From an uncultured candidate division WWE3 bacterium (GTDB taxonomy: Bacteria > Patescibacteriota > WWE3 > UBA101185 > UBA10185): a stretch of 64,000 nucleotides of DNA. Positions 18,710 to 33,553 of this stretch are shown here, in pieces. The stretch covers positions 32,762-96,761 of the forward strand of contig CAIRNR010000004.1 in the NCBI GenBank assembly GCA_903879985.1, given 5' to 3'. Both the position numbers and the translations under genes were made by a program. The notes beneath the pieces are model-generated. The model had not been told where the DNA came from. It was given only the letters and a program-made list of their open reading frames with translations, and searched no databases. Position 1 is the stretch's first letter. Each line of letters starts with the position of its first letter.

Positions 18710-19309
18710 ATGAAAACTCGTAATCGGTTTTGGACGATAGGTTTGTTGGTGTTTGTGTTTGTCCTGATTTCGGCCTGCGCACTTGGTGCTGCTCCCGTGC
18801 CCCCACCGCCTGACCCGTTACCGCTGTGGAAAGGAATGGACCCAAATGATATAGCGGGTTCGATGGGCATTTCAAAGGATACTCATGTGATTACTTACGA
18901 GGTGTCCATGAATATTAACCCGAAGTTTTACAAGGGTCCCGGCAAGTTAAGTTATACGAGTAACAAGCTGCTGTTATCTACGGACATCATGCCTACGTTT
19001 ATCAACGAATTTTCTGATTTCACCGTACTCTATGGATACGACGATCGGACGTTGATGTATAACGGAATTGCAACCAAGGCGGTTGTATTTGACGGCAGTA
19101 AGCAAGTTATAGCCGAGGCAAGATTAGAAGAAGGCGACGGCAGGACACTTACGCTTTTGGAGGTACATTACGACACCTCTGGAAATGTGATTTTCTGGTG
19201 CCACAGTACTATCAGTACTGGACTTGGGGACAAGATCGATGAGTACGATGTTAATGGTGTTAAGGCTAAAGAGTATTTCTTCCTTTGGCCGGTTTCTGCA
19301 TTCAACTAA
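18710..19309 (+). CDS. Lipoprotein, function unknown.
   Basis: The signal peptide has the lipobox LISAC. A poly-Pro linker (PVPPPPDPLP) follows, and a terminator lies downstream. Confidence 0.45.
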   Translation: MKTRNRFWTIGLLVFVFVLISACALGAAPVPPPPDPLPLWKGMDPNDIAGSMGISKDTHVITYEVSMNINPKFYKGPGKLSYTSNKLLLSTDIMPTFINEFSDFTVLYGYDDRTLMYNGIATKAVVFDGSKQVIAEARLEEGDGRTLTLLEVHYDTSGNVIFWCHSTISTGLGDKIDEYDVNGVKAKEYFFLWPVSAFN

Positions 19310-19502: not shown

Positions 19503-20099
19503 ATGAAATTTTTAGATTTTAAAGGAAAAACCCTTAATTTGGGGGATCAATTTAGTGCTATATTTTCAAAGGCAAAACCTGTTCTAGTGCAATCCGGAAT
19601 TATTGTTACGGTTTTAGTTATAATAGCGGGATCTTGCGTCACTTATTACAATTATCTAACTTTAAAAGAACTTTCTGTCCTTGTAAAATCTCAATCGGAA
19701 ATTATTTCAAAATCTTCAAACTTTAAAGAAAGCGTTAAAAATTCTGATTCGACTTCGTTTGAAATTTCAAATATTAATAAACAACTCGCAATAGTGCTTT
19801 CAAAAATATCAAATAATTCTTCATCTAAAATTTCTGAACCTTCTACAAATGTAACCCCTACCCCAGATGCACCTGCCTATTTGGGAATGATTAGAACCGT
19901 CAATGACCCTACGACTACAGTAAATATATACGATGTGCCAAGCAATGGTGGCAACATTATTAGTACTGTTCCTTCAGATGATCTACTTTTTTATTATAAA
20001 ACTGCCCAGGGTTGGTATCAGATTGAACTAGAACCTGGGAATTTAGGTTGGATTCAGGCTGATTTGGTAATAGAATTACCTAGTACAACGAAAGAATGA
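19503..20099 (+). CDS. Membrane-anchored protein with a C-terminal bacterial SH3 (SH3b) domain.
   Basis: It has an N-terminal TM helix, a Ser-rich linker, and a C-terminal region (TVNIYDVPS...GWYQIELEPGNLGWIQADLV) typical of SH3_3. Confidence 0.5.
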   Translation: MKFLDFKGKTLNLGDQFSAIFSKAKPVLVQSGIIVTVLVIIAGSCVTYYNYLTLKELSVLVKSQSEIISKSSNFKESVKNSDSTSFEISNINKQLAIVLSKISNNSSSKISEPSTNVTPTPDAPAYLGMIRTVNDPTTTVNIYDVPSNGGNIISTVPSDDLLFYYKTAQGWYQIELEPGNLGWIQADLVIELPSTTKE

Positions 20100-20926
20100 A
20101 GATTATTAAAATAGTATTGAACTTATATTGTTTGCTCATAACACTGCCCCTGTTAGTGGTAGGGTTTAAGAATTTGAATTCATTTGCCAGTTTAACCTTA
20201 TTTTTATTTTTACTTCCTATCGCTCTTTATTTGCCTGTTAGTCTTTTTGGTAGATTAAAAAAAGTAAAAATTACTTTAGTAGTAATTAATTTTATTTTTT
20301 CACTAGTCATATTGGTTGTAGAGTTGTTAGCTGTAAAAAACCTAGTTGATGGTATTTTTGTATTTTTATTTTTACCGGTCTTTATTAACTTTTTAATGCT
20401 TTTGATTCAATGTTTTAAAAAATCCCCTGAAAAAGAAGTTATAGAGGCTGACGCTTTTGCAACCGATACACCTGCAGCAATCGATACCTTAATTTTTGAG
20501 CAAGAACACTTAGTTCAGGATGAAACTAGGCGTAAATTTATTAAGGTTATAGCCGGTGCGGGAATTGGCACTATCGTTTTATGTTTAATGAATCCTCAAA
20601 AGGCTGCAGCCGCATTTTTTGGAAGTATGCCTGGTCCTGGTGTCATTTCGATAAAGGATTCAGCAGGTACAAAGATTGATCCTTCAATAAAAGATCCAAC
20701 GGATAGTTACGGCATTAGTGATACAAGTGAAACTGGAGTAGCACATTACTATGGATTTATTCACTATAACGGTAGTGACTGGTATATTTTAAAAGATGCT
20801 GGAGATGGTACATTTGCTTACGCCACTAAGGCTAATAACGTAGGTGTTGCTTATGCAACTGCGTGGACAAATAAAGCTTCGAGTTTAGGTTACGGTTCCT
20901 TTTCTGCTGCCTTTAAAACAATATAA
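20096..20926 (+). CDS. Polytopic membrane protein with a C-terminal extracytoplasmic domain; hypothetical.
   Basis: It has an ATGA start-stop overlap with the upstream gene, about 4 TM helices, then a soluble 150-aa region. Confidence 0.4.
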   Translation: MKIIKIVLNLYCLLITLPLLVVGFKNLNSFASLTLFLFLLPIALYLPVSLFGRLKKVKITLVVINFIFSLVILVVELLAVKNLVDGIFVFLFLPVFINFLMLLIQCFKKSPEKEVIEADAFATDTPAAIDTLIFEQEHLVQDETRRKFIKVIAGAGIGTIVLCLMNPQKAAAAFFGSMPGPGVISIKDSAGTKIDPSIKDPTDSYGISDTSETGVAHYYGFIHYNGSDWYILKDAGDGTFAYATKANNVGVAYATAWTNKASSLGYGSFSAAFKTI

Positions 20927-20928
20927 AC

Positions 20929-23900
20929 TTACCACCACAACAAAACTCGCCACATTTCATTACCTGTATGTCTCATAACGTAAAGGTATCTTAAATGATC
21001 CTTTGGATAAGATGATGCGGTAGGATCAGCGTATTCTATAATTTCCATTCTATTACCAATAACTGCTGTACCCATACCATAAGGAACCGTTGCGGAAGGC
21101 ATTACAAGGTTAGTAACAATATCGTAATAGTTAATTCTACCAGTAGCCTCTTTTGTAAAATAAATTCTGTCGACGCCGTCATAACTGTACATAGAACCTG
21201 TTGTTAATGTTTCCATATTTGGGAACTGAGTGATCGTTTCCCAAACTCCATATGGAATATCGTATCTGTTAAGTTCGGTTGCCGCACCACCTCTAAAAGA
21301 ATACATAAATCTTGCCTTCATATTAGAAGTGCTTGGATCATATAATCTATCTAAATGTAAGCCAGTACCACGAGGTGTTATTGGATAAATAGCGTAAACA
21401 TCTGCGCCTGCTGTGGCACCAATGGTAAAACCAAAAGAAGTACCAAAAGCGGACATTTGTGTCTGACTGTTCTGTCCTGCGGCTACGACAGCTTGCTCAG
21501 CTGGGTTTGCGGTTCCTGGTACCTGACCTGCAAGCATTCGTGCTCTGTGACCTGCAAAGTATGCGTATGGCCAGTTCTGTGTGTAATCAATAATTGCTGT
21601 TGTGGAACCTCCTGTAGCAACTCCGTAACAATCTAATATTTCGTAAACTGTTGTTGCATCTGTCGTGGCGCTTAATGCTGTAGCTAATGTAAGCGTTGTT
21701 GCGGTGTTAGACAAAATCGCTGCCTGACTTCCCGCCCCTGCCCCAGCGACAATTTGTACAAGTCTTGCGTCGGTTCCTTTTATGGTTCTTATAACGGAAC
21801 CTGATTCTGTAGTTAAACCAGACGCGACTGTTAAAGTACCTGCCGCGGAGGTTACAACTTGGAACCAGCTATTGTTACCACTTTGCGAAAAGCCACTTAA
21901 TTTAATCCACATACCTACTGTGAATACTGCTAAACGGCTTGAAGAGTCTGTAATAGTTGTTGAGTTTGATACCTGAATTGTTGCATCACTAGCTGACACT
22001 ATAGTTTGTAATGTTTGGTTAAACCAGTTTACCGGCCAGTTTTTTGTTGCGTCGATAATTGTTTTAGCATCGCCGGCTGTTGATGTACAAACACCCCAAG
22101 TTCCTTGATTTGGTGTTCCTGAAGTGGCTCCTGGTGGAAAATACGAAGTTTTAGGCAAGGTTGAGTCAACTCCAAAGGGTTTCATATCTTGAATCATATA
22201 GCGTGTTGTACCATCAACTGGAGAGGCGCCTAAAACTAGAGTGCCCATTGTAAATGTTGTGGAGGTGTTTGCCGAAATTCTTCGTACATAGCCACCTGCA
22301 CCAATTTGTATGGATACAAGTTTGCCTACAAGTTCACTTGGTGCCCAATTTTTTGTAGCATCAACTATGATTAATGTAGTTTGTGCTTGGGTTACGGTTG
22401 CTGTACCTGTGGCTGTTGCTCCAACTGAAAGTCTAAAAATTAATGCTGTATCGTAACCGACAACTGGCCAAGCGCCGTTAATAGCTGCCGGTGCAAGAGC
22501 GCCCGCAACGGTTACAGAGTCACCAATTAAAAAGTTTGTAGAAAGAATAGTTGTAACCGCGGCAACGTTTGTAGTTGCGCCTGATGCCCACGAAACGGTA
22601 CATCCCGTGCCTCCTGCTGGTAAAACTGTTGTAACAATTGTTGATCCGGTAGTGTTATACGCGGTTCCCGCGTTTTCTAAAGCTATACTTGTTACAGCAC
22701 CAACTGAATCAACTCCTGTAACTCTATACTTTGCGGTAGTACCACCACCTCCGTTAACCGTCAAAATATTTCCAATAAAATAACCACTGCCTCCTGCGGC
22801 AATTGTAACCGGTTGTGTGCCTCCTGTATTACCTACTAATCCTCCGGCGGAAACTACAACACCTCCTGCAGCCACACCGTGTGCTCTGTCTCCAGTTTGA
22901 CCTGGTGCTGATAAAGAAATAGCTCTACAAATACCCCAATCTAATTGTGTTCCCGTTGTCCAATGATCTGCATCGATTCCGTATTGTTGCATGGCTGAAT
23001 GTGTAGCATACGTAGACCATATCTTGTCGGTGTCTGGCCATACCTCGTAGCCATCTCCATTCGCGGGATTAGAAAGCCAACTTTTTCCTATCGTAAAAGA
23101 TGTGGCATCGTTAGCTATGATTGTTCGATATTGGCCAATACTCGCTGCGGTGGTTGATGCGGTTATGCGTAATTGCATTCCTGCATATTGATTAATAACC
23201 ATATTAGCACCGGAGTTTACTAATCTTCTGGACGTTCCACTTGTTGCTGTAACGCCTGTTATTAATGCTGATGGACCGTCGTGTACTATTTCTGTAGCCA
23301 AATCAGTAGCTGCAGCATTTAAAAAGTTATACTGCACCGATTTAACGTGCCAGTAATCTGAAATTACATCATAATAGGAAAGTGAAAGCCATGGAGCTGC
23401 TGCAGAATTTAACAACCAAATTCCGCCACCTTTAACAACGAATCTTGATGTGGCATCAGGTGTAACGTCCCAAGCAACGGAGACTGTAATCATGGAAGCT
23501 TCAATATAGTAGTCACTACCTGCACCGGGTGCGGTCCATGGAGGATTTCCCCAAGGATCAATGGCTAAATACGCTGGGTCTGCTACGGTAAGAACGGTTG
23601 AAGTATTATATAAAATACGTCTAACCTGAGATTGACCAGTGCCTAACACAACTCTAACCTGATAATCCCGCCATTGATTTGGTTTCCATAGTCTATAAAT
23701 AGGTGGATTAACTGTTGCATCTGTTAACGATGTCGTCGCGCCCGCAGTTGCTACCCCGTAGTCATACGTTATAGGTTCACCAACATCTAATATTGTTCTT
23801 TCCTGACCTGCACCTGTTCCTGATAAGATTTTTATTTTTAATCCCTTTAAGGCTTTTCCATTTAAGGCAGCTGCATAAAAAGTTGTAGTAGTTGGTGCAG

Positions 23901-24177
23901 GTGAAGCTAAAACTCTTGAGTAATATCCGACGTCGTTGGAATAGCGTAACGGTGCATCTACAGCCGCGGTTACAGGTCCGTTAGCTAATTGGTGCCATGT
24001 GTCGTTGATTGTGTCATAACGATACATCGTAGCTGCAGTATAGTAATACATGTATCTGGGTGCTCCAGGAGGAGAACATGTAGCACAGATGTTTGTATTG
24101 GTAGCGACTGGTGCTAATTTACACCATTCCCATACCGGTTGATCAACTAAATTTTTTAAATTTAATGTAATAGCCAT
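20929..24177 (-). CDS. Giant (1082 aa) Thr/Gly/Ala/Val-rich fibrous protein, possibly a fibre or adhesin; no N-terminal signal peptide.
   Basis: It is one uninterrupted ORF with internal repeats (IIDATKNWP, IVDATKNWAP, IIDYTQNWPY) and beta-rich composition. It is co-oriented with two upstream small genes. Confidence 0.5.
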   Translation of the reverse strand: MAITLNLKNLVDQPVWEWCKLAPVATNTNICATCSPPGAPRYMYYYTAATMYRYDTINDTWHQLANGPVTAAVDAPLRYSNDVGYYSRVLASPAPTTTTFYAAALNGKALKGLKIKILSGTGAGQERTILDVGEPITYDYGVATAGATTSLTDATVNPPIYRLWKPNQWRDYQVRVVLGTGQSQVRRILYNTSTVLTVADPAYLAIDPWGNPPWTAPGAGSDYYIEASMITVSVAWDVTPDATSRFVVKGGGIWLLNSAAAPWLSLSYYDVISDYWHVKSVQYNFLNAAATDLATEIVHDGPSALITGVTATSGTSRRLVNSGANMVINQYAGMQLRITASTTAASIGQYRTIIANDATSFTIGKSWLSNPANGDGYEVWPDTDKIWSTYATHSAMQQYGIDADHWTTGTQLDWGICRAISLSAPGQTGDRAHGVAAGGVVVSAGGLVGNTGGTQPVTIAAGGSGYFIGNILTVNGGGGTTAKYRVTGVDSVGAVTSIALENAGTAYNTTGSTIVTTVLPAGGTGCTVSWASGATTNVAAVTTILSTNFLIGDSVTVAGALAPAAINGAWPVVGYDTALIFRLSVGATATGTATVTQAQTTLIIVDATKNWAPSELVGKLVSIQIGAGGYVRRISANTSTTFTMGTLVLGASPVDGTTRYMIQDMKPFGVDSTLPKTSYFPPGATSGTPNQGTWGVCTSTAGDAKTIIDATKNWPVNWFNQTLQTIVSASDATIQVSNSTTITDSSSRLAVFTVGMWIKLSGFSQSGNNSWFQVVTSAAGTLTVASGLTTESGSVIRTIKGTDARLVQIVAGAGAGSQAAILSNTATTLTLATALSATTDATTVYEILDCYGVATGGSTTAIIDYTQNWPYAYFAGHRARMLAGQVPGTANPAEQAVVAAGQNSQTQMSAFGTSFGFTIGATAGADVYAIYPITPRGTGLHLDRLYDPSTSNMKARFMYSFRGGAATELNRYDIPYGVWETITQFPNMETLTTGSMYSYDGVDRIYFTKEATGRINYYDIVTNLVMPSATVPYGMGTAVIGNRMEIIEYADPTASSYPKDHLRYLYVMRHTGNEMWRVLLWW

Positions 24178-24193
24178 AAATTAATTATTTTTA

Positions 24194-24499
24194 TTAAAAC
24201 GTAATGTTGTTTCTTATTCCGATTGCATATTCCATTCTTGCTCTGTCCATTATTTCGTATCTTTGATCAACAGGTTGTGCTGCTATAGAGACTGGTTGTG
24301 TACTTTGATAAAAAGTTCCTGTTACTGCTGTTGATGCCGCAGCTTCAACTACAACTCTCTGTCTTTGCTGGATATCACATACAGCACTTGGTTCTAATAA
24401 TTTAACAATTCTTCTTAAAAGGGAAACACTTTCATCTTGAGCTGGGTTTATAACTGTTCCGCTACTATCTGCGACTCTTGTTTGTTCAAAATATGACAA
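24194..24499 (-). CDS. Hypothetical 101-aa protein between the fibre-tip-like gene and the giant gene.
   Basis: The ORF is clean and co-oriented with its neighbours, with gaps of 17 nt and 36 nt. Confidence 0.3.
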   Translation of the reverse strand: MSYFEQTRVADSSGTVINPAQDESVSLLRRIVKLLEPSAVCDIQQRQRVVVEAAASTAVTGTFYQSTQPVSIAAQPVDQRYEIMDRARMEYAIGIRNNITF

Positions 24500-24534: not shown

Positions 24535-24912
24535 CTATATAATATACCAATTGGTACCTTTAGAGACAACCTGCATAGCAGAATTTTGAAATGCTAATAT
24601 AACGGTTGCGTTTCCATCATCAATTTTATCCGAACCTGCACCAGCTACGGTAACAGTATTTATCGTTGAATCAGTTTTTTTTATTTTATAAACCTTATTT
24701 GGGTGAGTTGTGGCATCTGGAAGTGTAATTGTTATATTTCCTGTTAGCGAACTAGAGGCGTCCGCCAGAATTACTGTTCCTGCGTCTGCAGCTGTATTTC
24801 CCGTAACGGTAACAGCATTTATTATGTCAATAACACCAGTGATAGAAAGATCACCAATTTGGTGAGAATGTAGTAACGGTTTTCCTAATAATTTATCGAT
24901 TGTGACGGGCAT
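24535..24912 (-). CDS. Small beta-rich protein resembling phage or adhesin receptor-binding tip domains (inference).
   Basis: The ORF track start at 25017 is a TTG and overlaps tatC. The ATG at 24912 (MPVTIDK...) is more likely. The C-terminal pattern YKIKKTDSTINTVTV...IDDGNATVIL...VVSKGTNWYII recalls tail-fibre tip modules. Confidence 0.3.
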   Translation of the reverse strand: MPVTIDKLLGKPLLHSHQIGDLSITGVIDIINAVTVTGNTAADAGTVILADASSSLTGNITITLPDATTHPNKVYKIKKTDSTINTVTVAGAGSDKIDDGNATVILAFQNSAMQVVSKGTNWYII

Positions 24913-24957: not shown

Positions 24958-25668
24958 ATGGATGATAAAAACGAGACGTACGAAATTTTCATAAAAGAGT
25001 TTATGGTACTTCGTCAAAAATTGATAAGTGTTTTTATTTTATTCTTCGCCGGATCGGCTATAGGATTACTTTTTAATCAACAAATATTAAAATTGGCACT
25101 CAAAATATTTAATTTCAGTGGTGTTAACATGGTTTTAACTTCTCCAGGGCAAATGATTGAAATTTCTATTTACACTGCTGTGTTAACAGGCCTGTTTTTT
25201 GCCACTCCTGTGCTAATATATCAAATTTACATGTATATTCGACCTGCATTTAAAGATAAGGAATATCACTTAATTATGTCTTTTGTTCCTTTGAGTCTTG
25301 TTCTTTTTATTTTGGGAGGAGCTTTTGGTGTTTGGATTAATCAATTAATGCTTGCCCTTTTTTCTAAATTTTCCAGCGACTTTAGACTGAATAATATTTG
25401 GGATTTACAACGATTTTTCTCTCAAGTAATTATGACAGCAATTTTGACCGGGCTTTTATTCCAAATGCCTTTGTTTTTATCTGCGCTAATAAGATTCAGA
25501 TTGTTGTCACGACAGCTTTTAGTGCAAAAAAGAAAAGTCGCATATGTTATCTTGTTAATAATCGCAGTTTTGCTGCCACCCACTGACATTTTGTCCTTAC
25601 TTATTCTTACAATTCCACTTATACTATTATATGAATTAACTTTGTTTTTAAATGTTGGACAACCTTAA
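24958..25668 (+). CDS. tatC: Sec-independent protein translocase TatC.
   Basis: It has 6 TM helices and TatC-type motifs, LTSPGQ and the YMYIRPAFKDKEY loop (compare F-I-x-P-G-L-Y-x-x-E). Confidence 0.7.
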   Translation: MDDKNETYEIFIKEFMVLRQKLISVFILFFAGSAIGLLFNQQILKLALKIFNFSGVNMVLTSPGQMIEISIYTAVLTGLFFATPVLIYQIYMYIRPAFKDKEYHLIMSFVPLSLVLFILGGAFGVWINQLMLALFSKFSSDFRLNNIWDLQRFFSQVIMTAILTGLLFQMPLFLSALIRFRLLSRQLLVQKRKVAYVILLIIAVLLPPTDILSLLILTIPLILLYELTLFLNVGQP

Positions 25669-25683
25669 AGGAGGTGCATTTTT

Positions 25684-25863
25684 GTGTTTGGAATAGAAAA
25701 TATTGGAACACCGGAGATTATCATTGTCGCAGTAGTGCTCTTGATTATTTTTGGACCTAAAAAGCTTCCAGAGTTTGCTAAGGGATTAGCTGATGCAGTT
25801 AAGGAAGTAGGAAATGCCTTCAAAGGCGATAAAGGAAAAGGACAGGAGAAAAAAGAAAGTTAA
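25684..25863 (+). CDS. tatA: TatA/E-family translocase subunit (59 aa; absent from the ORF track).
   Basis: A GTG start lies 10 nt after AGGAGG. The translation VFGIENIGTPEIIIVAVVLLIIFGPKKLPEFAKGLADAVKEVGNAFKG... has the TatA hallmark FGPKKLPE and an amphipathic helix. Confidence 0.65.
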   Translation: MFGIENIGTPEIIIVAVVLLIIFGPKKLPEFAKGLADAVKEVGNAFKGDKGKGQEKKES

Positions 25864-25868
25864 GGAAA

Positions 25869-28800
25869 ATGAAGAATGTGCGCATGCCCAAAAGTTTAAA
25901 AGTTCTTATTTTTGGAGTACTTTTTAGTATTCTCTATGTTGGGGCTGCCTCTAAAGTTATGGCAGCTCCTGCCGAATACCAACGCTGTGGACGCGGTGGT
26001 AGTTGTGAAATCGGTGAATTCTTATACGACGATTCATATTCGCCGATTACAACTGCGGGTATTTGTATTCTTACAAGTCGTACTTCATCTGGAAGCGTTT
26101 ATGCCGATCCTCCTTCAATAATGACTTCTTCCAGTGCGGGAGATGGTTGGTATTCATCTAACTGGACAGTTGGCGGTGCTCAAACCGAAGGACTTTATCC
26201 CACAACAGTTTGTTGTACTCCTGTTGGAGAAAATAAAATTTGTATCGATAAATCTTTTGTTATTGGTACAACTTTATTATCTGGCTCGGAAGTAGCCAAT
26301 GCCGTTTGGGATTCACAAACCAGCGATCACACAGGCGCAGGAACTTTTGGAAATGTATTAGGAAATATTTTATATAACATTTGGAATTACGGTACGCGCT
26401 CATTAACTTCTGCAACATTAGCCCTAGGAGAACAATTAGCTGTTAAATCTGAAGTAAATTCATCCATTACTGCATCACAAACAGCTGTCACAAGTGCTGT
26501 TAGTGGTTCACAGGGGTTGGTTATAGCAAATCAGAACTCAAATACAGGAACAGTTACCAGCGCCGTCACAGGTTCACAAGGTTTAGTGATCGCTAACCAA
26601 AATTCCAATACGGCTAGCGTAAACAGCGCGGTTGCAGGCTCTCAAGGATTGATTATTGCAAATCAAAATTCCAATACCGGAACAGTTACAAGTGCTGTTA
26701 GTGGTTCACAAGGATTAATTATTGCAAATCAAAATTCCAATACGGATAGTGTCAACAGTGCAGTTACAGGATCACAAGGTTTGGTAATTGCCAACCAAAC
26801 TGCCAATACATCTACAATTACCGGTTGGATAACTAGTACGCTCGCCGCACTACAAGCCGCAATACTTGGACAACAATCAAGCGATACCTCGTCATTAGCA
26901 GGCACTGTAACAAGTGCTATGTCTGGTTCACAAAACGCAATTATTGCCAATCAAAATTCAAATACAGATACCGTTACAAGTGCTGTTACTGGGTCTCAAG
27001 GTTTGGTAATCGCAAATCAAACAGCTAACACAAATACAATCACTGGTTGGATAACAAGTACGCTTGCATCATTACAAGCCGCAATACTTGGACAACAGTC
27101 ATCAGATACTTCTACATTGGCAGGAACCGTTACCAGCGCCGTCACAGGTTCACAAGGTTTAGTTATAGCAAATCAAAATTCAAATACTGGTACAGTTACA
27201 AGTTCAGTTTCCGTTGCACAAAACGCAATTATCGGAAACCAAAATTCAGCAACAGGAGTAATAACAGGCGCAGTTTCAAGTTCAGTATCGGCAGCTCAAG
27301 GTGCAATATTAGGTCAACAAACATCTGACACATCAACAATAACCGGTGCAATAACGGCAGGAACAGGCACAGTTACCAGCGCTGTTAGTGGTTCACAGGG
27401 CTTAATAATTGCCAGCCAAAGTGCTGCAACGGGCACAATAACAGGTGCAGTTTCAAGTTCTGTTTCTGGAGCACAAGCTGCAATTTTAGGTCAACAAACA
27501 TCTGATACTTCAACGCTTTTAGCACAAATGCTCGCAGACAAAACCTACTTGGGAAATGCAGTTACTTCTTCTCAATCAGCAATTATGGGACCCTCTGCTA
27601 AAAATCTAACGCAAATTGCAACAGGTGTTTCCGGATTACAATCAACAGCAGATTCTATTTCCACAAAAGTAGATTCATTGCAAACATCTATAGGTACGGT
27701 GGATACGAATGTTGACTCACTAATAACCAATTGGAATAATCTAGATTTGTCTCAGGTTTCTAGTGCCATGAGCGCAATAAGTACAAGCTTAGGTACTATT
27801 TCAGACGGATGTGCAAGTACAACTACTGTTTTTGGTGATATTCGCTGTTTAAAGGATAAATGGGGAGTTCAAGATGCCTCATCTTTGTATAATGCCGCAA
27901 ATAATGCTTATACAACATCTATAGCACTTCAGGGTGAATTGGATTATAACCAAAAATCGACAACAGCTTATAAAGATTTACAAAATTTAAAAACTTATGT
28001 GTTAGCTCTTCAAACTTCCTTAGGTACCGAAGCTGACGCGGCAACAGTGCCTACTATTTTTGGGCGTATTAAAAAATCTCAAGATACATTGGCAAATTTA
28101 AATACATCGGGAACCGGACTTGACGATTTACTAAGCAAGTGGGGTTCTTATGATGCCGCCGATATATATAACAAGGTTAAAAATCTTTCTGATGATATAG
28201 AAAAGGTTAATACAGTTCCCGACGTAGATTCGATTTTAAAATTATCTAAACAAAACTCTTCAGATATGAAAGAGTTGAAAAATACAACTTACGCATTAAA
28301 GGCTGTTGTAGATGTTAACAGAGTTTTACTTGATAAATTTTCAAATTCTCCAATTGTAAAAACATGGCTTGAAGATGGCTCGGTAATTTTCAAAACATTA
28401 ATTACTAACCCATCAACTATTTCTAAACAAACAGTTCCTCTAAAATTTTATCTACCTAAAGAAACCAGAAAAGAAGATTTAATTAAAGTAGATACAGGTT
28501 TGAATGTTGAATTTGATTCAAAAGAAGATGCATTTTTTGTTAGTGGTTTATTCCCATTAAATCCTGGTGAAACAAAAATAGTAGCTGTTGAGGTTAAGGA
28601 TGTTTGGAAAATAAATACAACTGAATTGGATTCATTAAGAATGCAAGCCGAAGATTTATCTGTTCCTCTAAAAGATAGTTCGTTTTTTGCGCAAGGTGTA
28701 ACTCTTAAGTCGGATATCGTCGTACGACTTGACGATATTAAACGTTTGCAAAGCGAGGCTTATACACCAGAAGATCGTATCAAAACTTTCAGAGACAATA

Positions 28801-29819
28801 TGACGCAATTAAGTTCTATTAAGCTTGAAATGGGAGAACTTAAATCATTAGTCGCGCAATCAGCGTCATCTAAGAATTTATTAGGATTTGTTGGCGGCGC
28901 ACAAGTTTCATCTATTTGGGGAATCGTGTTTGTATTACTCGCTGCCTTTGGATTTATTTTGATTTATACCAAGTTCTTGCTGGGTGCATTTAAACCTAAA
29001 GGAAAAGTTAAAAATGAGGTTCAGGAAACAACAACCAGCATTGGAATGCCCGATTTACCAGAACAAAAGAAAGTACTTCCAAATATTGTGTTGCCAGCTT
29101 TACCAAAGCCAACATTTGCTAAACTATCGATGAATGTCCATGTACTAAAATTGGTATTTATATCTGTAGCTTCATTTGCTGTAATGGGTGCAGGCGTATG
29201 GTTTATGTTAACAAGATTAACGCCAAGTAAACCTGTGTCTGTTCCACAAGAAATTAAAAAGGAAATAACACCTACGGTAGCTGAAGAACCAACTAATGTT
29301 GATTCTGCACCAAACGAAACTCAGATAACCACAGAAAAATCTGTATTGGGAGCTCAAAGTACAAATGTAGTAATCACAATTCCTTCATATTCCGACGGCG
29401 TAAATGTACGACAACAACCTGATATTACTTCTCCAGTATTAATTAGATATAACAAGGATACAGAGGTAATAAAATATTCTGAATCTGGAACTTGGACAGA
29501 AGTAGGAATAGATTTAACAGTTGCTGGTGTTAACTACACCCGTGGTTGGGTAAGCACTGGTTTAATTACAGTTCCTTCTTCCGTAAAGGTTGTTGCACCG
29601 GCAGATACCGATGGAGTAAATGTTAGAGCAAAGCCCGGATTAAGCTCTGACGTTATTGGTATCACTCCAGTTGAGTTTAATACAGTTAAATATGGTGAAT
29701 CCGCGGACGCCGATTGGGTTGAGATAGAAGTTGATATGAAAAAAGATGATACTAAATACACAAGAGGCTGGGTTAATAAGCAGTTTGTACAAAAAGCTGA
29801 ATCTACTCCATCATTATAA
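25869..29819 (+). CDS. Giant (1316 aa) secreted repeat protein with two late TM segments and tandem C-terminal SH3b domains.
   Basis: It has a Sec signal peptide, a Cys-rich head, about fifteen 22-aa repeats (VTSAVTGSQGLVIANQNSNTGT), a long helical or coiled region, two hydrophobic segments (around 28.90-28.97 kb and 29.13-29.21 kb), then two SH3_3-like modules (DGVNVR...YTRGWV, twice). Confidence 0.6.
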   Translation: MKNVRMPKSLKVLIFGVLFSILYVGAASKVMAAPAEYQRCGRGGSCEIGEFLYDDSYSPITTAGICILTSRTSSGSVYADPPSIMTSSSAGDGWYSSNWTVGGAQTEGLYPTTVCCTPVGENKICIDKSFVIGTTLLSGSEVANAVWDSQTSDHTGAGTFGNVLGNILYNIWNYGTRSLTSATLALGEQLAVKSEVNSSITASQTAVTSAVSGSQGLVIANQNSNTGTVTSAVTGSQGLVIANQNSNTASVNSAVAGSQGLIIANQNSNTGTVTSAVSGSQGLIIANQNSNTDSVNSAVTGSQGLVIANQTANTSTITGWITSTLAALQAAILGQQSSDTSSLAGTVTSAMSGSQNAIIANQNSNTDTVTSAVTGSQGLVIANQTANTNTITGWITSTLASLQAAILGQQSSDTSTLAGTVTSAVTGSQGLVIANQNSNTGTVTSSVSVAQNAIIGNQNSATGVITGAVSSSVSAAQGAILGQQTSDTSTITGAITAGTGTVTSAVSGSQGLIIASQSAATGTITGAVSSSVSGAQAAILGQQTSDTSTLLAQMLADKTYLGNAVTSSQSAIMGPSAKNLTQIATGVSGLQSTADSISTKVDSLQTSIGTVDTNVDSLITNWNNLDLSQVSSAMSAISTSLGTISDGCASTTTVFGDIRCLKDKWGVQDASSLYNAANNAYTTSIALQGELDYNQKSTTAYKDLQNLKTYVLALQTSLGTEADAATVPTIFGRIKKSQDTLANLNTSGTGLDDLLSKWGSYDAADIYNKVKNLSDDIEKVNTVPDVDSILKLSKQNSSDMKELKNTTYALKAVVDVNRVLLDKFSNSPIVKTWLEDGSVIFKTLITNPSTISKQTVPLKFYLPKETRKEDLIKVDTGLNVEFDSKEDAFFVSGLFPLNPGETKIVAVEVKDVWKINTTELDSLRMQAEDLSVPLKDSSFFAQGVTLKSDIVVRLDDIKRLQSEAYTPEDRIKTFRDNMTQLSSIKLEMGELKSLVAQSASSKNLLGFVGGAQVSSIWGIVFVLLAAFGFILIYTKFLLGAFKPKGKVKNEVQETTTSIGMPDLPEQKKVLPNIVLPALPKPTFAKLSMNVHVLKLVFISVASFAVMGAGVWFMLTRLTPSKPVSVPQEIKKEITPTVAEEPTNVDSAPNETQITTEKSVLGAQSTNVVITIPSYSDGVNVRQQPDITSPVLIRYNKDTEVIKYSESGTWTEVGIDLTVAGVNYTRGWVSTGLITVPSSVKVVAPADTDGVNVRAKPGLSSDVIGITPVEFNTVKYGESADADWVEIEVDMKKDDTKYTRGWVNKQFVQKAESTPSL
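26470..27510 (+). repeat. In-frame tandem repeat array with a 66-nt (22-aa) period, about 15 units with degenerate spacers.
   Basis: Direct reading: VTSAV[ST]GSQGL[VI]IANQNSNT[GD][TS] repeats, interspersed with ITGWITSTLAALQAAILGQQSSDTS units. Confidence 0.7.
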
Positions 29820-31302
29820 GTGGTTCTTCACCTTCAAAGTCTCGTTTACTTTCCTTAACAAATAATGCTGATAAACTTCCGACGAACATAAATGCTACTG
29901 CAGTTTTAAATACCGTAGCAAAAGATAAGATATTTGCCTTGACGGCCATTAAAGCTACAACTTCACCGTATATAGCCTGAGAATGCGCGTTAATAATTGT
30001 ATGTTGCTGTAAAGCTAATAAATTACTGTTAAAACTGTTGGTTAGGATTGTTGCAAATATAGCGATACCAAAAGCTCCGGCGATGTTACGTGCTAATGCT
30101 AAAACCGATGAAGCAATTCCGATTTCGTGAACAGGTACTGTTGATGTAGCGGCATTTGTTAATGGAGACATTCCCAAACCAAGTCCAAAAGCCATAACAA
30201 ACATGCGTATTGCAATATCCACGCCGGTCCACTTAACGTCTATTTGAGAAAACAAAGCCATGGCTATTGCACCAATAAACATTCCTACTGCAACTAGATA
30301 TCTTGGTTCAAATTTTGATGCTAGTTTTCCTCCAAGTGGCGCAGCGATTAACATACCAATTGCCATTGGTATAAATAATAAGCCTGTTTGAGTAACCGTA
30401 TATCCCATGTAGTTTTGTATAAAAATTGGAAGAATAAACATTCCGCCCATCATTCCCATGAATGAAATAAATGAAGTTACTATTGCTGCACTAAATGACG
30501 GAATCTTAAAAAACTTTAGGTCTACAACCGGTTCTTTAGCTCTTTGCTCAATAAGTACAAATCCAACAAATGACAAAGTAGTGACGATATAAGTGATAAT
30601 ACTGTTTGCACTCCCCCATCCCCAACCTTGACCTTGATCTAATACTAAAACCAAAGCTCCCAATGAAAGTCCTAAAGTTAGTGCACCTGCAATATCAAAG
30701 TTTTTCAATCCTTTAACTTCTTTGACTGGCTCGTCGATATATTTAATAGCCATAAAAGTACCAATCATTCCGATAGGAACGTTTATATAAAATACTGATC
30801 TCCATGAGAATGTGTCTATTAGAGGACCGCCCAATAATGGGCCAAATACTGCGGCAACAGCAAATATTGCTGACCACAAGCCCATTGCTTGAGCTCTCTG
30901 ACTTTTATCTTGAAATGTATGAGCAACAATAGAAAGTGCTATTGGATAATCGATTGAAACGGTGATAGCTTGAAGGACGCGGAATAAAAGTAAAGATTGT
31001 AAGTTAAAAGACAATCCAGCTAACATTGAGGTTACAACAAAGCCAACTATACCAAAAATGTATAAAGCTTTTCTTCCAATTAAGTCGCCGAGCTTTCCGA
31101 ATATTGGAACAAAAATCGCATTTGCAATTATGTAGCCTGTTGAAATCCAGCTTGCTTGAGAAACAGTTATACCAAAGTCTTTAATAATTTTTGGAAAGGC
31201 TAGGTTTACAATAGTACCGTCAAGTCGCCCTAAAAAACTGGCGATCATTACGGTTGCAAGCACTACCCATTGGTTTTTGTGAAATACTGTTTTTTCGGCC
31301 AT
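29803..31302 (-). CDS. MFS transporter, DHA2 (EmrB/QacA-like, 14 TM) family.
   Basis: It has 14 predicted TM helices and an MFS motif A-like region, GKLGDLIGRK. It is co-operonic with HlyD-type adaptors and a MarR regulator. Confidence 0.7.
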   Translation of the reverse strand: MAEKTVFHKNQWVVLATVMIASFLGRLDGTIVNLAFPKIIKDFGITVSQASWISTGYIIANAIFVPIFGKLGDLIGRKALYIFGIVGFVVTSMLAGLSFNLQSLLLFRVLQAITVSIDYPIALSIVAHTFQDKSQRAQAMGLWSAIFAVAAVFGPLLGGPLIDTFSWRSVFYINVPIGMIGTFMAIKYIDEPVKEVKGLKNFDIAGALTLGLSLGALVLVLDQGQGWGWGSANSIITYIVTTLSFVGFVLIEQRAKEPVVDLKFFKIPSFSAAIVTSFISFMGMMGGMFILPIFIQNYMGYTVTQTGLLFIPMAIGMLIAAPLGGKLASKFEPRYLVAVGMFIGAIAMALFSQIDVKWTGVDIAIRMFVMAFGLGLGMSPLTNAATSTVPVHEIGIASSVLALARNIAGAFGIAIFATILTNSFNSNLLALQQHTIINAHSQAIYGEVVALMAVKANILSFATVFKTAVAFMFVGSLSALFVKESKRDFEGEEPLIMME

Positions 31303-31332
31303 AGTTTATTCTTTGTGCTTAGACAACGGTTG

Positions 31333-31965
31333 TTACTTTGTGAACACAGTCATTTTTGCAGACATTCCGTTTTTAATTTCAGGATATTGTTCTGAATTGA
31401 ATTTTGCGAACACTTCAAACTGTTGTGTTGGACGTGTGCCTGAAATAGAAAATGCAGCTTGTGTTTGTTTAGCACTTTCACCTACTTCATCAACGTATCC
31501 CCAAAAAGTTTTTCCAGGTAAGGCATCGACTGTAAATGAAACGACCTGTCCGATTTTAATTTGATTTAAACCTTTGTTTTCGTCTATGGTTCCGTTAATT
31601 CTCATTTGAGTAGTGTCTATCATTTGAACAACCGGAACTTGTGCGGACACGATACTTCCTATTTGTTGATTTGTGTTTGATACTATTCCGTCGGAATAAG
31701 ATCGAATAACTTCTGAACCAACAACGCCTAAAACGTCACCTTTTTTAACTTTTTGACCTTCGATAACGTCAACACTTATAAGTTTTCCAGGCACGGTTGC
31801 TGACAATGATGTTATTGGTGCATCAACAAGAGAGTTTTCTATAGAAACTCTGGATGTTGTTTTTAATAAAAATAATGTTGTCCCGAAAATAATTCCAATA
31901 GCCAAAACAATTAATAATGTTCTTACGAATATTTTGTTTTTTAATGCATTTAATAAGTTTTTCAT
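31333..31965 (-). CDS. Short HlyD/EmrA-like membrane fusion protein (biotin-lipoyl-like plus beta-barrel, no long coiled coil).
   Basis: It has an N-terminal TM helix and periplasmic adaptor-like beta-rich sequence. Confidence 0.45.
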   Translation of the reverse strand: MKNLLNALKNKIFVRTLLIVLAIGIIFGTTLFLLKTTSRVSIENSLVDAPITSLSATVPGKLISVDVIEGQKVKKGDVLGVVGSEVIRSYSDGIVSNTNQQIGSIVSAQVPVVQMIDTTQMRINGTIDENKGLNQIKIGQVVSFTVDALPGKTFWGYVDEVGESAKQTQAAFSISGTRPTQQFEVFAKFNSEQYPEIKNGMSAKMTVFTK

Positions 31966-31989
31966 AATATTTTTTTAAGTGTATATACC

Positions 31990-33126
31990 TTATAAAACTA
32001 AGTACTTTTTGCTAACTATTGTTGATGGATCAACGATTATTTTGTCGTTAGCGTTTAATCCACTTACTATTTCGGTATATGCACCGTTTACGTTTCCGAT
32101 AACAACCTGTTTTAATACAGCGCTGCCGTTTTCTTCAACCCAAATATTTTGACCATTTAAGATCAGCCATGTTGGTGCTAAGAAAACTTGTTTATCATAA
32201 ATGTTTGTAATAAATGCAACACCACCTTGTTTATATTTTCCAAGTGTTGGGATTTGGTCACTCGCGATATCGACCTGATATACATTTTCTCCATTAGGCA
32301 AAGAAAGTTTATCCGGATAAATTTTAATAACGGTTCCGTCAAAAGTTTGGTCTTGCATACCGTTTAATTTTATTGTTGCCTTAGCTCCTCCACTTACATA
32401 ATTGATTTCATCTTCAGAAATATTAACTCTAAACACCAAAGCTTTTGGATCGATAATATTAAAGGTTGTTGAAGGTGTAGCCATTACGTATGGTGTATTT
32501 ATATCTTCGTGAGTAATAACACCGTTAAATGGTGCGTTAATTGATGCAAGTGTTAAAGCATACTGAGCTAACTCTATTTGAATAGCTGCATTATTAACAT
32601 TGTCTTTACTTTGTTGTCTCAAATGATCTACTGCTGTTTGAATAGCATCTGCTTTTTCATCGCCTTTTATCCCAGCTATTTGATAGTAGTCATAAGGATA
32701 AACTAATTGGGATTTTAATACTTTATCGTTAGCATTAGCTTTTGTTTGTTTGTAGGCTGCGTTTGCGGCATCGTAATTATTCATTGCTGCTTCAAGTTGT
32801 TTTTGGATTGTATATGTATCGAGTGATGCAATGGTCTGGCCTTGTTTAACGGTTGTTCCTTCTTTAAATGGAAGGTATACAACTTTACCTCCTGTTTGAA
32901 AATGTAATGAAGCTTCGTTTTGCGAACGAACAAATCCTTCTACCATTATTTGTGAATTAACAGCTTTAAGGTTAACTGTTTCAGATTTAATTTCTGAATT
33001 TTTGCTTTTTGTAATAAGTTTTGCTACTCCAAAGAATGTCCCTGTAGCAATTACTACCATAATGGCTAGCGAAATAATTAAATTTTTTGAAATACGCGTT
33101 TTCATATTATTTACCTTCCTTTTCAA
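31990..33126 (-). CDS. HlyD-family efflux periplasmic adaptor (membrane fusion protein).
   Basis: It has an N-terminal TM helix, a coiled-coil central part (AAMNNYDAANAAYKQTK...) and a C-terminal beta domain. Confidence 0.55.
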   Translation of the reverse strand: MKRKVNNMKTRISKNLIISLAIMVVIATGTFFGVAKLITKSKNSEIKSETVNLKAVNSQIMVEGFVRSQNEASLHFQTGGKVVYLPFKEGTTVKQGQTIASLDTYTIQKQLEAAMNNYDAANAAYKQTKANANDKVLKSQLVYPYDYYQIAGIKGDEKADAIQTAVDHLRQQSKDNVNNAAIQIELAQYALTLASINAPFNGVITHEDINTPYVMATPSTTFNIIDPKALVFRVNISEDEINYVSGGAKATIKLNGMQDQTFDGTVIKIYPDKLSLPNGENVYQVDIASDQIPTLGKYKQGGVAFITNIYDKQVFLAPTWLILNGQNIWVEENGSAVLKQVVIGNVNGAYTEIVSGLNANDKIIVDPSTIVSKKYLVL

Positions 33127-33553
33127 GTTTTTGATACAACTTTTTTAAAATTTCTAACAAATTACTTTTATCCTGTTCTGAAATGACATTTAATACGTAG
33201 GTCATTCTTTCGACCTTAGCTTTGGTTGATTTTTCTAAATCTTTTTTACCTTTTGTAGTTAATGTAATCAAAACTTTTCTTCTGTCGTTTTCGTCGTCTA
33301 CTCTTTCAACTAATCTGTTAACCAACAATCTGTCTATAAGAACGGTTGCAGTTGGTAGTTTAACATTAAGCTCTTTTGCTAACTGGCTCATTGTGACATT
33401 TTCTTTGTCGGCAATAAGCATTAAAGCTCGTAACTGCAACATACTAAGCTCGTGATCAATAGTCTCATTAAACTTAATATTTTTACCTACGGCTCTAATA
33501 ACCTTGTAGGAAAGTAGTATTATTTCTTGTTCTGATGCTTTTTGTTTAGTCAT
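33107..33553 (-). CDS. MarR-family transcriptional regulator.
   Basis: It has a winged HTH: SQLAKELNVKLPTATVLIDRLLVNRLVERVDDENDRRKVLITLTTKG. Confidence 0.7.
   Translation of the reverse strand: MTKQKASEQEIILLSYKVIRAVGKNIKFNETIDHELSMLQLRALMLIADKENVTMSQLAKELNVKLPTATVLIDRLLVNRLVERVDDENDRRKVLITLTTKGKKDLEKSTKAKVERMTYVLNVISEQDKSNLLEILKKLYQKLEKEGK

Follow-up and report, generated by a model that had tools for sequence, protein, structure and literature searches.

In Bacillus subtilis, the phoD-tatAd-tatCd locus encodes a two-component twin-arginine translocation (Tat) system, consisting of TatA and TatC without TatB, beside the gene of a specific exported protein. Long α-helical fibres are found on the surfaces of other cells, for instance the streptococcal M proteins, the stalks of trimeric autotransporters and tetrabrachion, with its 11-residue repeats. 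A further class of proteins, which includes the actinobacterial Rieske protein Sco2149, the molybdenum cofactor protein Sco3746 and a polyferredoxin of MLMS-1, is integrated into the membrane by both the general secretory (Sec) and the Tat pathways (Tooke et al., 2017, PMC5449189). TatA and TatC have previously been reported in Microgenomatia (PMC9166423). Here we describe a tat locus joined to the gene of a giant surface protein in 64,000 nucleotides of DNA from an uncultured candidate division WWE3 bacterium (assembly GCA_903879985.1, contig CAIRNR010000004.1, positions 32,762 to 96,761 of the forward strand), hereafter the window. The tatC, tatA and giant genes constitute the core of an envelope gene neighbourhood that is conserved in Microgenomatia, a class of the candidate phyla radiation (CPR). 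The reading we prefer, with a probability of roughly one in two, is that of a conserved Tat-linked envelope module of this class, in which Tat would export a protein with an internal twin-arginine (RR) signal and the Sec-exported giant protein would serve as an anchored scaffold.

Much of bacterial diversity belongs to the CPR, and at the level of genes almost nothing is known of the envelopes of these bacteria or of their structures for host contact. A literature search found no published description of the linkage between tat genes and the giant gene, and a class-wide, Tat-associated envelope neighbourhood has apparently not been described before.

The tatC-tatA-giant gene core and its conservation

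The three core genes of the window are co-directional and tightly packed (Table 1). TatC matches the Pfam profile PF00902 over positions 6-208 of 208 (1.7e-39, 136.2 bits, cut-off 25.1) and also matches the equivalog models of NCBIfam, below their curated cut-offs. TatA matches TatA_B_E (PF02416; 1e-13, 50.8 bits, cut-off 21) and has a short N-terminal transmembrane (TM) helix, an FG hinge and an amphipathic helix (MFGIENIGTPEIIIVAVVLLIIFGPKKLPEFAKGL...). An AGGAGG sequence lies about 9 nt 5′ of its GTG start, and the 59-residue protein is also called by gene callers in other assemblies. A preliminary description of the window, made from the DNA letters and their open reading frames (ORFs), had claimed a complete minimal Tat translocase, composed of TatC and this short GTG-started TatA, and both proteins pass profile searches. 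The 5-nt gap it gave between the tatA stop, which ends at 25863, and the start of the giant ORF at 25869 is likewise correct. That description had named an interruption of the giant ORF as a point to check, and the ORF proves intact in independent assemblies. The identical protein is present on 11 contigs of ENA, JGI and NCBI records, so the long ORF is no assembly artefact; the TatC sequence of the window is found on 18 contigs. A scan for terminators found no terminator-like site between tatC, tatA and the giant gene. A promoter scan was uninformative, promoter-like sites being fewer than in shuffled sequence, and an Rfam scan of the window returned no RNA elements.

Conservation of the linkage was followed in 77 genome loci (designated by L numbers), whose ORFs were scanned with TatA and TatC profiles built for this analysis; counts refer to the 50 loci of Microgenomates type whose upstream sequence spans 1.5 kb or more. 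In all five nearest homologues of the giant protein (29-39% identity), tat genes stand beside its gene. A tat gene lies within 150 nt of the giant gene in 38 of the 50 loci and within 3.5 kb in 48, and tatC itself lies within 3.5 kb in 38. By a rough estimate, a random 7-kb interval of a genome of about 1 Mb would hold a tat locus less than 1% of the time. The linkage is not due to chance, and the synteny that the preliminary description had wanted checked in related genomes is kept, both in the five nearest homologues and in 48 of the 50 loci.

Three gene orders occur. In the first, found in the window, tatC is followed by one or more tatA genes and the giant gene, while in the second the tatA genes precede tatC, which precedes the giant gene. 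In the third, a tatA-giant pair faces a converging tatA-tatC-tatA-tatA operon. The outer flanks of the loci are unrelated to one another. When the TatA proteins encoded next to giant genes were compared by BLAST, 155 of 225 of their top-five hits in other loci were themselves giant-adjacent, versus 49 of 615 for the other TatA proteins. Judged from these matches, the giant-adjacent TatA proteins, including that of the window, are an orthologue group of their own.

Relatives carry up to nine tatA paralogues, each of 45-70 residues, around a single tatC (nine in L026). The suggestion that Tat systems are sparse in such reduced genomes does not hold here, as Tat is not rare in this lineage. Expansion of tatA is also seen in L027, L039, L050 and others, in genomes of about 1 Mb. 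A separate observation is that in 15 loci (L018, L023, L026, L027, L029 and others; e.g., L042 5430-6380) the tatA-giant pair is preceded, in divergent orientation, by the gene of a DeoR-type helix-turn-helix protein of about 316 residues, with a weak SoFic-like match in its C-terminal domain. It is a candidate regulator.

In the TatC alignment, the position equivalent to the signal-binding glutamate E103 of Escherichia coli is Glu in all 44 aligned sequences. The equivalent of E15 is Glu in 39 of the 44; it is Val in the window (near residue 19), Lys in L006 and Gln in L005. From the conservation of these glutamates, canonical RR recognition would be expected in Microgenomatia.

A candidate Tat substrate with an internal signal

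A scan for RR motifs first found a 157-residue WWE3 protein with the sequence ERRKFFK, encoded two genes upstream of tatC in L013. Its homologues include the window ORF at 20096-20926, termed here the RR protein, whose gene lies about 4 kb upstream of tatC. The preliminary description had seen no substrate with an RR signal in the window, but this ORF carries one, TRRKFIK, in an internal position. The motif stretch reads DETRRKFIKVIAGAGIGTIVLCLMNPQKAAA|AFFGS..., with a Gly/Ala-rich h-region, and a domain of about 100 residues follows. Hydropathy places about four TM-like segments in residues 1-109 and one more after the motif, at 146-167. In the alignment of RR proteins, R146, F148 and K150 are invariant.

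A profile of the C-terminal domain retrieved 239 relatives from metagenome contigs and, as far as seen, the family is found in Microgenomates-type loci alone. Its motif is of the RRxFLK type, with RR in 57 and KR in nine of 66 distinct members, F at +3 in 64 of 65, L or I at +4, and K at +5 in 62 of 65. The motif is preceded by a median of 132 residues in the 66 distinct sequences, and 52 of these have two or four upstream TM-like segments by hydropathy estimate. The h-region is less hydrophobic than the upstream TM segments (1.82 versus 2.68), and a basic residue stands before the A-FFGS site in 74 of 74 sequences. The C-terminal domain has no Pfam match, and the family alignment contains no conserved Cys or His for a cofactor. 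Apart from the cofactor residues, the motif, TM-like segments, h-region and basic residue agree with the published criteria for dual Sec/Tat proteins (PMC5449189). The RR protein is therefore a candidate for integration by both pathways and probably the cognate substrate of the Tat system; its C-terminal domain may be cleaved off at an AxA site after the signal. It would work like the described dual Sec/Tat class while being a new, apparently cofactor-less family.

The RR gene directly adjoins tatA or tatC in eight metagenome loci (L105, L108, L109, L112, L121, L122, L124 and L161). Elsewhere, a 403-residue protein with an N-terminal GLTRRDFFKVAGAAAAGAF Tat signal is encoded a few kilobases from the tat cluster of L063 (4432-5643, minus strand) and is likely another Tat client.

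Anatomy and distribution of the giant protein

Besides an N-terminal hydrophobic segment (about residues 8-33), hydropathy finds only two others in the giant protein, at about 1013-1033 and 1095-1115. The Sec-type signal peptide without an RR motif and the late pair of hydrophobic segments, both reported in the preliminary description, are thereby borne out. The loop between TM1 and TM2 is Lys-rich. With the signal cleaved, the predicted topology places the ectodomain outside, the loop inside and the C-terminus with its SH3b domains outside again; positive-inside topology and the AlphaFold2 model agree on the outside placement of the fibre and the SH3b domains.

SH3_3 (PF08239) matches two stretches at the C-terminus (4.1e-12, 46.5 bits, cut-off 27). 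An AlphaFold2 model of residues 760-1316, built on an alignment of 80 sequences, has a mean predicted local distance difference test (pLDDT) score of 82.7. It contains helices, a β-sandwich at about 829-909, and a hairpin of helices with a long helix running into TM1, all with a pLDDT of about 95 or higher, then TM2 and two SH3b-like β domains. In a Foldseek search of this model against the PDB, the tandem SH3b part alone found matches, namely B. subtilis YrvJ (9a7d), the phiSM101 endolysin (4krt) and NlpC/P60 proteins. The two C-terminal SH3b modules proposed earlier are thus seen by Pfam, AlphaFold2 and Foldseek alike. By analogy with these wall-binding modules, their role would be non-covalent attachment to peptidoglycan.

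At the other end, the Cys-rich domain, which takes up the first 100 residues or so after the signal, is modelled with a pLDDT above 90; for its function, Foldseek gave generic immunoglobulin (Ig) or macroglobulin-type folds and nothing more. It is the putative distal tip of the fibre. The 22-residue repeats comprise 12 clear copies at residues 206-548 and several variant units (consensus TVTSAVSGSQGLIIANQNSNTG), so that an initial count of about fifteen was roughly right. Tandem Repeats Finder gives periods of 66, 132 and 222 nt in the array. Because the hydrophobic periodicity is 3.69 residues (22/6; the 11/3 type has 3.67), helices are favoured over a β-helix, and the array is probably α-helical, formed by amphipathic helices of the 11/3 type. 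AlphaFold2, which had been suggested as the means to choose between β-helix and coiled coil, models the repeat region with low confidence, and it is the periodicity that speaks for helices.

The closest homologues have the same full architecture, common to the family: a Sec-type signal, a Cys-rich tip, a variable middle, a membrane-proximal block, TM1, the loop, TM2 and one or two SH3b domains. The block is the family-defining module, with the signature WLEEGS..F..L..NPS...Q.VPLK.YLPKE ... GFVGGAQ leading into TM1 (WLEDGS...NPS...Q.VPLK.YLPKE in the window). An exhaustive search of 1.84 billion proteins with a block profile (alignment A2) found 886 representative clusters at E<=1e-3, of which 392 reach E<=1e-30, while a word-indexed homologue search with the profile returned mostly fragments. 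The block has no counterpart in Pfam, NCBIfam, PHROG, a PDB profile search or Foldseek against the PDB. Among the species genomes of GTDB, it is present in Microgenomates lineages, which include Levyi-, Shapiro-, Roizman-, Woese-, Davies-, Collier-, Ames- and Beckwithbacteria, WWE3 and Dojkabacteria, with distant relatives in Omnitrophota. In the Omnitrophota loci (L071-L084; e.g., L072 3-8150 and 8171-8914), the block is split over two ORFs. The giant ORF stops after the first β-strand (...KPVVQTWFEFK*), and the remainder of the sandwich is found in a separate secreted, TM-anchored protein of 232-254 residues. This arrangement suggests that the two proteins attach by β-strand complementation.

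The family was also searched for Tat signals. Before TM2, 52 homologues contain no conserved RR or KR, only sporadic ones, and an internal RR signal was rejected as a conserved feature. An N-terminal Tat signal was rejected as well, since among 156 N-termini only a small subclade begins with MRRLL. Many of the signals start with M-x-T-A-(R/Q) and close with P-(K/R)-x-x-x-A|A. In the c-region, 27 of 65 family members have a basic residue, compared with 46 of 180 other signal-like ORFs (odds ratio 2.1, p=0.018, by a crude predictor with noisy controls); as a Sec-avoidance feature, this enrichment is too weak and noisy to use. As far as its sequence tells, the giant protein is not a canonical Tat client.

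The wider neighbourhood

The locus extends beyond tatC, tatA and the giant gene. To it belong the genes of the RR protein, of a small TM-SH3b protein and of large proteins without signals, joined in most relatives by that of a PrsW-type protease. The 198-residue TM-SH3b protein encoded directly upstream of the RR gene matches SH3_3 at 1.4e-5 and 25.6 bits, just under the gathering score of 27 bits. Small SH3b homologues end within 120 nt upstream of the RR gene in 30 of 60 metagenome loci. In the window, the gene just upstream of this pair (18710-19309, plus strand) codes for a 199-residue protein that has a poly-Pro linker and whose N-terminus resembles that of a lipoprotein (…VLISAC…).

Between the RR gene and tatC, the content varies by clade: a single 800-residue protein in L013, proteins of 716 and 78 residues in L005, and proteins of 1082, 101 and 125 residues in the window, L015, L088 and L090. 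None of the proteins encoded in this interval has a signal peptide. The 1082-residue protein, which has no Pfam or NCBIfam match and has homologues in the same position in L015, L088 and L090, is built of a unit with the pattern ..G.G.GQ.R.I..NT..T......W...P...S.Y.I. The unit also occurs singly in proteins of about 170 residues with Lys-rich tails, encoded just downstream of the RR gene in 17 of 60 loci. By eye, the N- and C-terminal ends of the 1082-residue protein are Kelch-like. The 101-residue protein has no family match in Pfam, NCBIfam or PHROG, and the sole family match of the 125-residue protein is a weak one to a PHROG tail fibre (E 0.003). The latter starts at an ATG and not at the upstream TTG at 25017; callers in other assemblies also give 125 residues.

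All-against-all clustering of locus ORFs defined two further families upstream of the tat genes and on the same strand, with gaps of about 40 nt in L105. The first, c5, is a right-handed β-helix protein (PF13229) of about 432 residues (e.g., L029 10676-11974); the second, c6, has 670-1030 residues (e.g., L023 12582-14600). An N-terminal hydrophobic segment is absent from 20 of 21 c5 and 23 of 23 c6 members. Such proteins share an operon with the tat genes in about 30 loci and, where the tatA genes precede tatC, the order on one strand is c6-c5-tatA(n)-tatC-giant-PrsW. No curated family was found for the giant family, its block, the RR family, c6 or the small proteins. The C-terminus of c5 (IADAVWDE..H..GT.G) weakly echoes a stretch after the tip domain of the giant protein (ANAVWDS...H..GTFG). 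Homology by this shared motif (IAxAVWD) was considered and dropped; hhalign gives a 24-column match at 4% probability, too little to count as evidence of homology.

In 54 loci, the gene that directly follows the giant gene encodes a four-TM protein of 133 residues (e.g., L006 4683-5087, L008 6153-6554). PrsW (PF13367) matches 12 of 20 members, with a best E of 1.2e-8. The EExxK and HxxxN motifs are kept, and E-E, K, F..SE, H and H...N vary little or not at all; on these matches and residues, the protein is a member of the PrsW intramembrane metalloprotease family. A major facilitator superfamily (MFS) gene takes its place in the window, as part of a converging operon (29803-33553, minus strand) that also encodes two YknX/HlyD-like adaptors and a MarR regulator. 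The 3′ end of the MFS gene overlaps that of the giant gene by 17 nt. The RR gene occurs together with c5, c6, the giant gene and the PrsW-like gene in L088, L100, L116, L126 and L156.

Table 1. Features of the tat-giant neighbourhood in the window (positions counted from the first nucleotide of the window; aa, amino acids).
Feature	Position	Strand	Description
Small TM-SH3b protein	19503..20099	+	198 aa; N-terminal TM anchor, C-terminal SH3b; stop overlaps start of RR gene (ATGA)
RR protein	20096..20926	+	276 aa; four N-terminal TM-like segments, cytoplasmic linker, internal RR signal, C-terminal domain of ~100 aa
Internal Tat consensus T-R-R-K-F-I-K	20525..20545	+	residues 144-150 of RR protein; then h-region VIAGAGIGTIVLCLM, c-region NPQKAAA|AFFGS
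1082-aa protein	20929..24177	-	no signal peptide or TM; convergent with RR gene; 6-8 copies of ~70-aa unit
101-aa protein	24194..24499	-	kept alongside 1082-aa gene in L015, L088, L090
125-aa protein	24535..24912	-	divergent from tatC, 45-nt gap; homologues in L015, L088, L090
tatC	24958..25668	+	236 aa; Pfam TatC (PF00902) profile match
tatA	25684..25863	+	59 aa; GTG start, AGGAGG ribosome-binding site; TatA_B_E match; directly 5′ of giant gene
Giant protein gene (FAM)	25869..29819	+	1316 aa; uninterrupted ORF
Sec-type signal peptide	25869..25967	+	residues 1-33; cleavage ~VMA|A; no RR motif
Cys-rich Ig-like / macroglobulin-like β-sandwich	25980..26264	+	residues 38-132; six invariant Cys
22-aa repeat array	26484..27512	+	12 canonical copies and variant units
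Membrane-proximal block	28230..28904	+	residues 788-1012; helices, 7-strand β-sandwich, helical hairpin into TM1
TM1	28905..28967	+	residues ~1013-1033; conserved GFVGGAQ motif before it
TM2	29151..29213	+	residues ~1095-1115; less hydrophobic than TM1; basic residue after, no RR before
Two tandem SH3b domains	29361..29795	+	residues ~1165-1229 and 1237-1309

Proposed model and alternatives

In the model that fits our preferred reading, the giant protein would be exported by Sec through its ordinary signal peptide and would form a long fibre outside the cell. The Cys-rich, Ig-like domain would be its tip, the helical 22-residue repeats would come next, and β-sandwich and helices would make up its base; a rough estimate from about 640 helical residues at 1.5 Å each puts its length at about 50-100 nm. 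A TM hairpin would hold the fibre in the membrane, and the chain, re-emerging after TM2, would bind peptidoglycan through its two SH3b domains. Tat would export the C-terminal domain of the RR protein in the folded state, as in proteins of the dual Sec/Tat type. The signal-less proteins, i.e., the 1082-, 101- and 125-residue proteins of the window and c5 and c6 of relatives, may be carried to the surface by Tat as passengers (hitchhikers) of the RR protein, or may work with it in some other way; we infer this step from gene context and the absence of signals. The fibre may be a wall-anchored scaffold for exported material, and the TatA paralogue co-translated with it may couple the translocase to the fibre base. 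The preliminary description had proposed a dedicated surface locus with a fibre anchored through SH3b domains. The fibre architecture, with its TM hairpin and external SH3b domains, fits that proposal, while the dedication of Tat to the giant protein is not supported: the giant protein lacks the RR motif that the RR family of related genomes keeps almost invariantly.

If this model is true, the export of folded proteins would be linked to the building of a surface organelle. What appeared as one odd adjacency becomes a class-wide neighbourhood of TatC, one to nine TatA proteins, a giant fibre family of about 890 representative clusters, the RR family, β-helix proteins without signals and a protease of the PrsW type. 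To the study of Tat it adds a new candidate family of the dual Sec/Tat type, apparently without cofactor, as well as unusually many TatA paralogues for genomes of about 1 Mb, one of them dedicated to a membrane protein that has no RR motif.

Several observations weigh against the preferred reading. Two of the 50 loci (L017 and L062) have the giant gene without a tat gene nearby. The RR gene lies within 8 kb of a fibre gene in only nine of the 77 genome loci, and tat genes are present at 12 of 18 RR loci with wide flanks. The c5, c6 and PrsW-like genes, present in most relatives, are absent from the window. A scan of locus ORFs found no tat genes near the Omnitrophota block relatives, so that the block itself needs no Tat. 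The loss of the E15 equivalent may have altered the receptor function of TatC in the clade of the window. Some c6 proteins exceed 2,800 residues (L106), which to our knowledge is more than any known Tat cargo, and their export would be unprecedented. Lastly, the contacts that the model supposes among the RR protein, the signal-less proteins, TatA and the fibre are hypothetical.

A bolder form of the model is a four-part, Tat-dependent surface-assembly system. The expanded set of TatA proteins and the single TatC would export huge, signal-less β-helix and repeat proteins, folded in the cytoplasm, on a membrane carrier with an internal RRxFLK signal; these would be mounted on the fibre, which a TM hairpin holds in the membrane and SH3b domains pin to peptidoglycan, and the PrsW-type protease would process one membrane component. 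We hold this version to be doubtful. If true, it would be the first Tat-built surface appendage or coat and a candidate host-contact organelle of episymbiont-like bacteria.

One alternative to the Tat-linked module is that the adjacency reflects inherited operon structure or the co-regulation of envelope genes and no direct mechanistic coupling, with Tat serving unrelated substrates and the fibre acting as an independent adhesin or spacer. The ordinary Sec signal of the fibre, the Omnitrophota relatives that manage without neighbouring tat genes and the two Microgenomates-type loci that lack them all agree with such a view, and since all loci come from one class, shared ancestry inflates the counts. 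However, the linkage has outlived three rearrangements as well as strand inversions while the outer flanks are unrelated, and the giant proteins it joins are just 29-39% identical overall. Even where the main tat operon lies on the opposite strand, a specific TatA paralogue keeps its place next to the fibre gene. Moreover, the tat cluster adjoins the fibre gene in some loci and the RR gene in others, as is typical of one functional network. We consider inherited adjacency without coupling unlikely.

Alternatively, the giant protein could itself be a Tat client. TM2 would then act as an RR-less internal Tat signal-anchor that moves the folded SH3b domains, or the N-terminus would carry a non-canonical Tat signal, and the upstream TatA would serve the biogenesis of the giant protein. 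Low TM hydrophobicity and a basic residue are two of the three features of dual Sec/Tat proteins (PMC5449189). In the 52 homologues, TM2 is less hydrophobic than TM1, rich in Ser, Gly and Thr, and often followed by a basic residue. The tatA gene that ends a few nucleotides before the giant gene belongs to its own orthologue group and can be likened, as a dedicated TatA, to that of the B. subtilis phoD locus. The P-(K/R)-x-x-x-A signals, with their modest basic enrichment, and the loss of the E15 equivalent in TatC of the window clade point the same way. On the other hand, that enrichment comes from a weak test with a noisy control set, and neither the region before TM2 nor the 156 N-termini contain a conserved RR or KR. 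The RR family keeps its RRxFLK motif almost invariantly, which makes receptor specificity look canonical. A fibrous ectodomain of about 1,000 residues with six invariant Cys suits Sec export and folding outside, and SH3b domains require no cofactor. Export of the giant protein by Tat thus seems improbable.

A phage-derived or mobile module, with tail-fibre-like signal-less proteins and a phage- or lysis-related giant SH3b protein, would fit the weak PHROG matches of the 125-residue (tail fibre, E 0.003) and 1082-residue (head closure, E 0.003) proteins, the resemblance of the tandem SH3b domains to the phage endolysin 4krt and the β-helix of the signal-less c5, but it was rejected as very improbable, given that PHROG and phage-genome tblastn searches were without significant match (none in PHROG for the giant protein, c5, c6 or the PrsW-like protein, and none for c5 and the giant N-terminal region against 50,697 phage records), that integrase, terminase, capsid, sheath and tube genes were not noted in the flanks, which were not profile-scanned for these, and that the neighbourhood is chromosomal across the whole class, next to housekeeping genes (in L013, for example, GroEL/ES).

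Comparison with known systems

The closest parallel in gene organization is the phoD-tatAd-tatCd locus of B. subtilis, where a minimal TatAC pair likewise stands directly beside the gene of an exported protein, implying a dedicated or preferred client. Unlike in that locus, the giant gene next to the window tatA encodes no RR signal, and the canonical RR client is a different, polytopic protein encoded a few kilobases away. Relatives have up to nine tatA genes with a single tatC, and the neighbourhood further codes for large proteins that lack signals, for an SH3b anchor protein and for a protease of the PrsW type.

The RR protein resembles the dual Sec/Tat proteins (PMC5449189) in its even number of TM segments (four), followed by an RR motif, a final TM segment of low hydrophobicity and basic residues at that segment's C-terminal end. 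It differs from them in its exported domain of about 100 residues, the absence of conserved cofactor-binding Cys or His, and an AxA site after the signal, and the RR family is unrelated to them in sequence. The giant protein has a similar late TM segment without an RR motif and is not a member of this class.

The Omnitrophota relatives (L071-L084) also have the block, with its β-sandwich, helices and conserved TM segment, at the base of a giant extracellular protein. In contrast to the giant protein of the window, their block is split, SH3b domains and a second TM segment are absent, and no tat genes lie nearby. Among long surface fibres, M proteins, trimeric autotransporter stalks and tetrabrachion share with the giant protein long low-complexity repeats, a helical periodicity of the 11/3 type and a globular distal domain, though there is no sequence or profile relationship. 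M proteins and autotransporter stalks are held by LPXTG/sortase attachment or an outer-membrane barrel, whereas the giant protein has a TM hairpin and SH3b domains. These two tandem SH3_3 domains have the same fold as the wall-binding modules of the Clostridium phage phiSM101 endolysin Psm (4krt), B. subtilis YrvJ (9a7d) and NlpC/P60 proteins. In the giant protein, however, they occur without a hydrolase and follow the TM hairpin that ends a fibre of about 1,000 residues, where they would tether a membrane protein to the wall.

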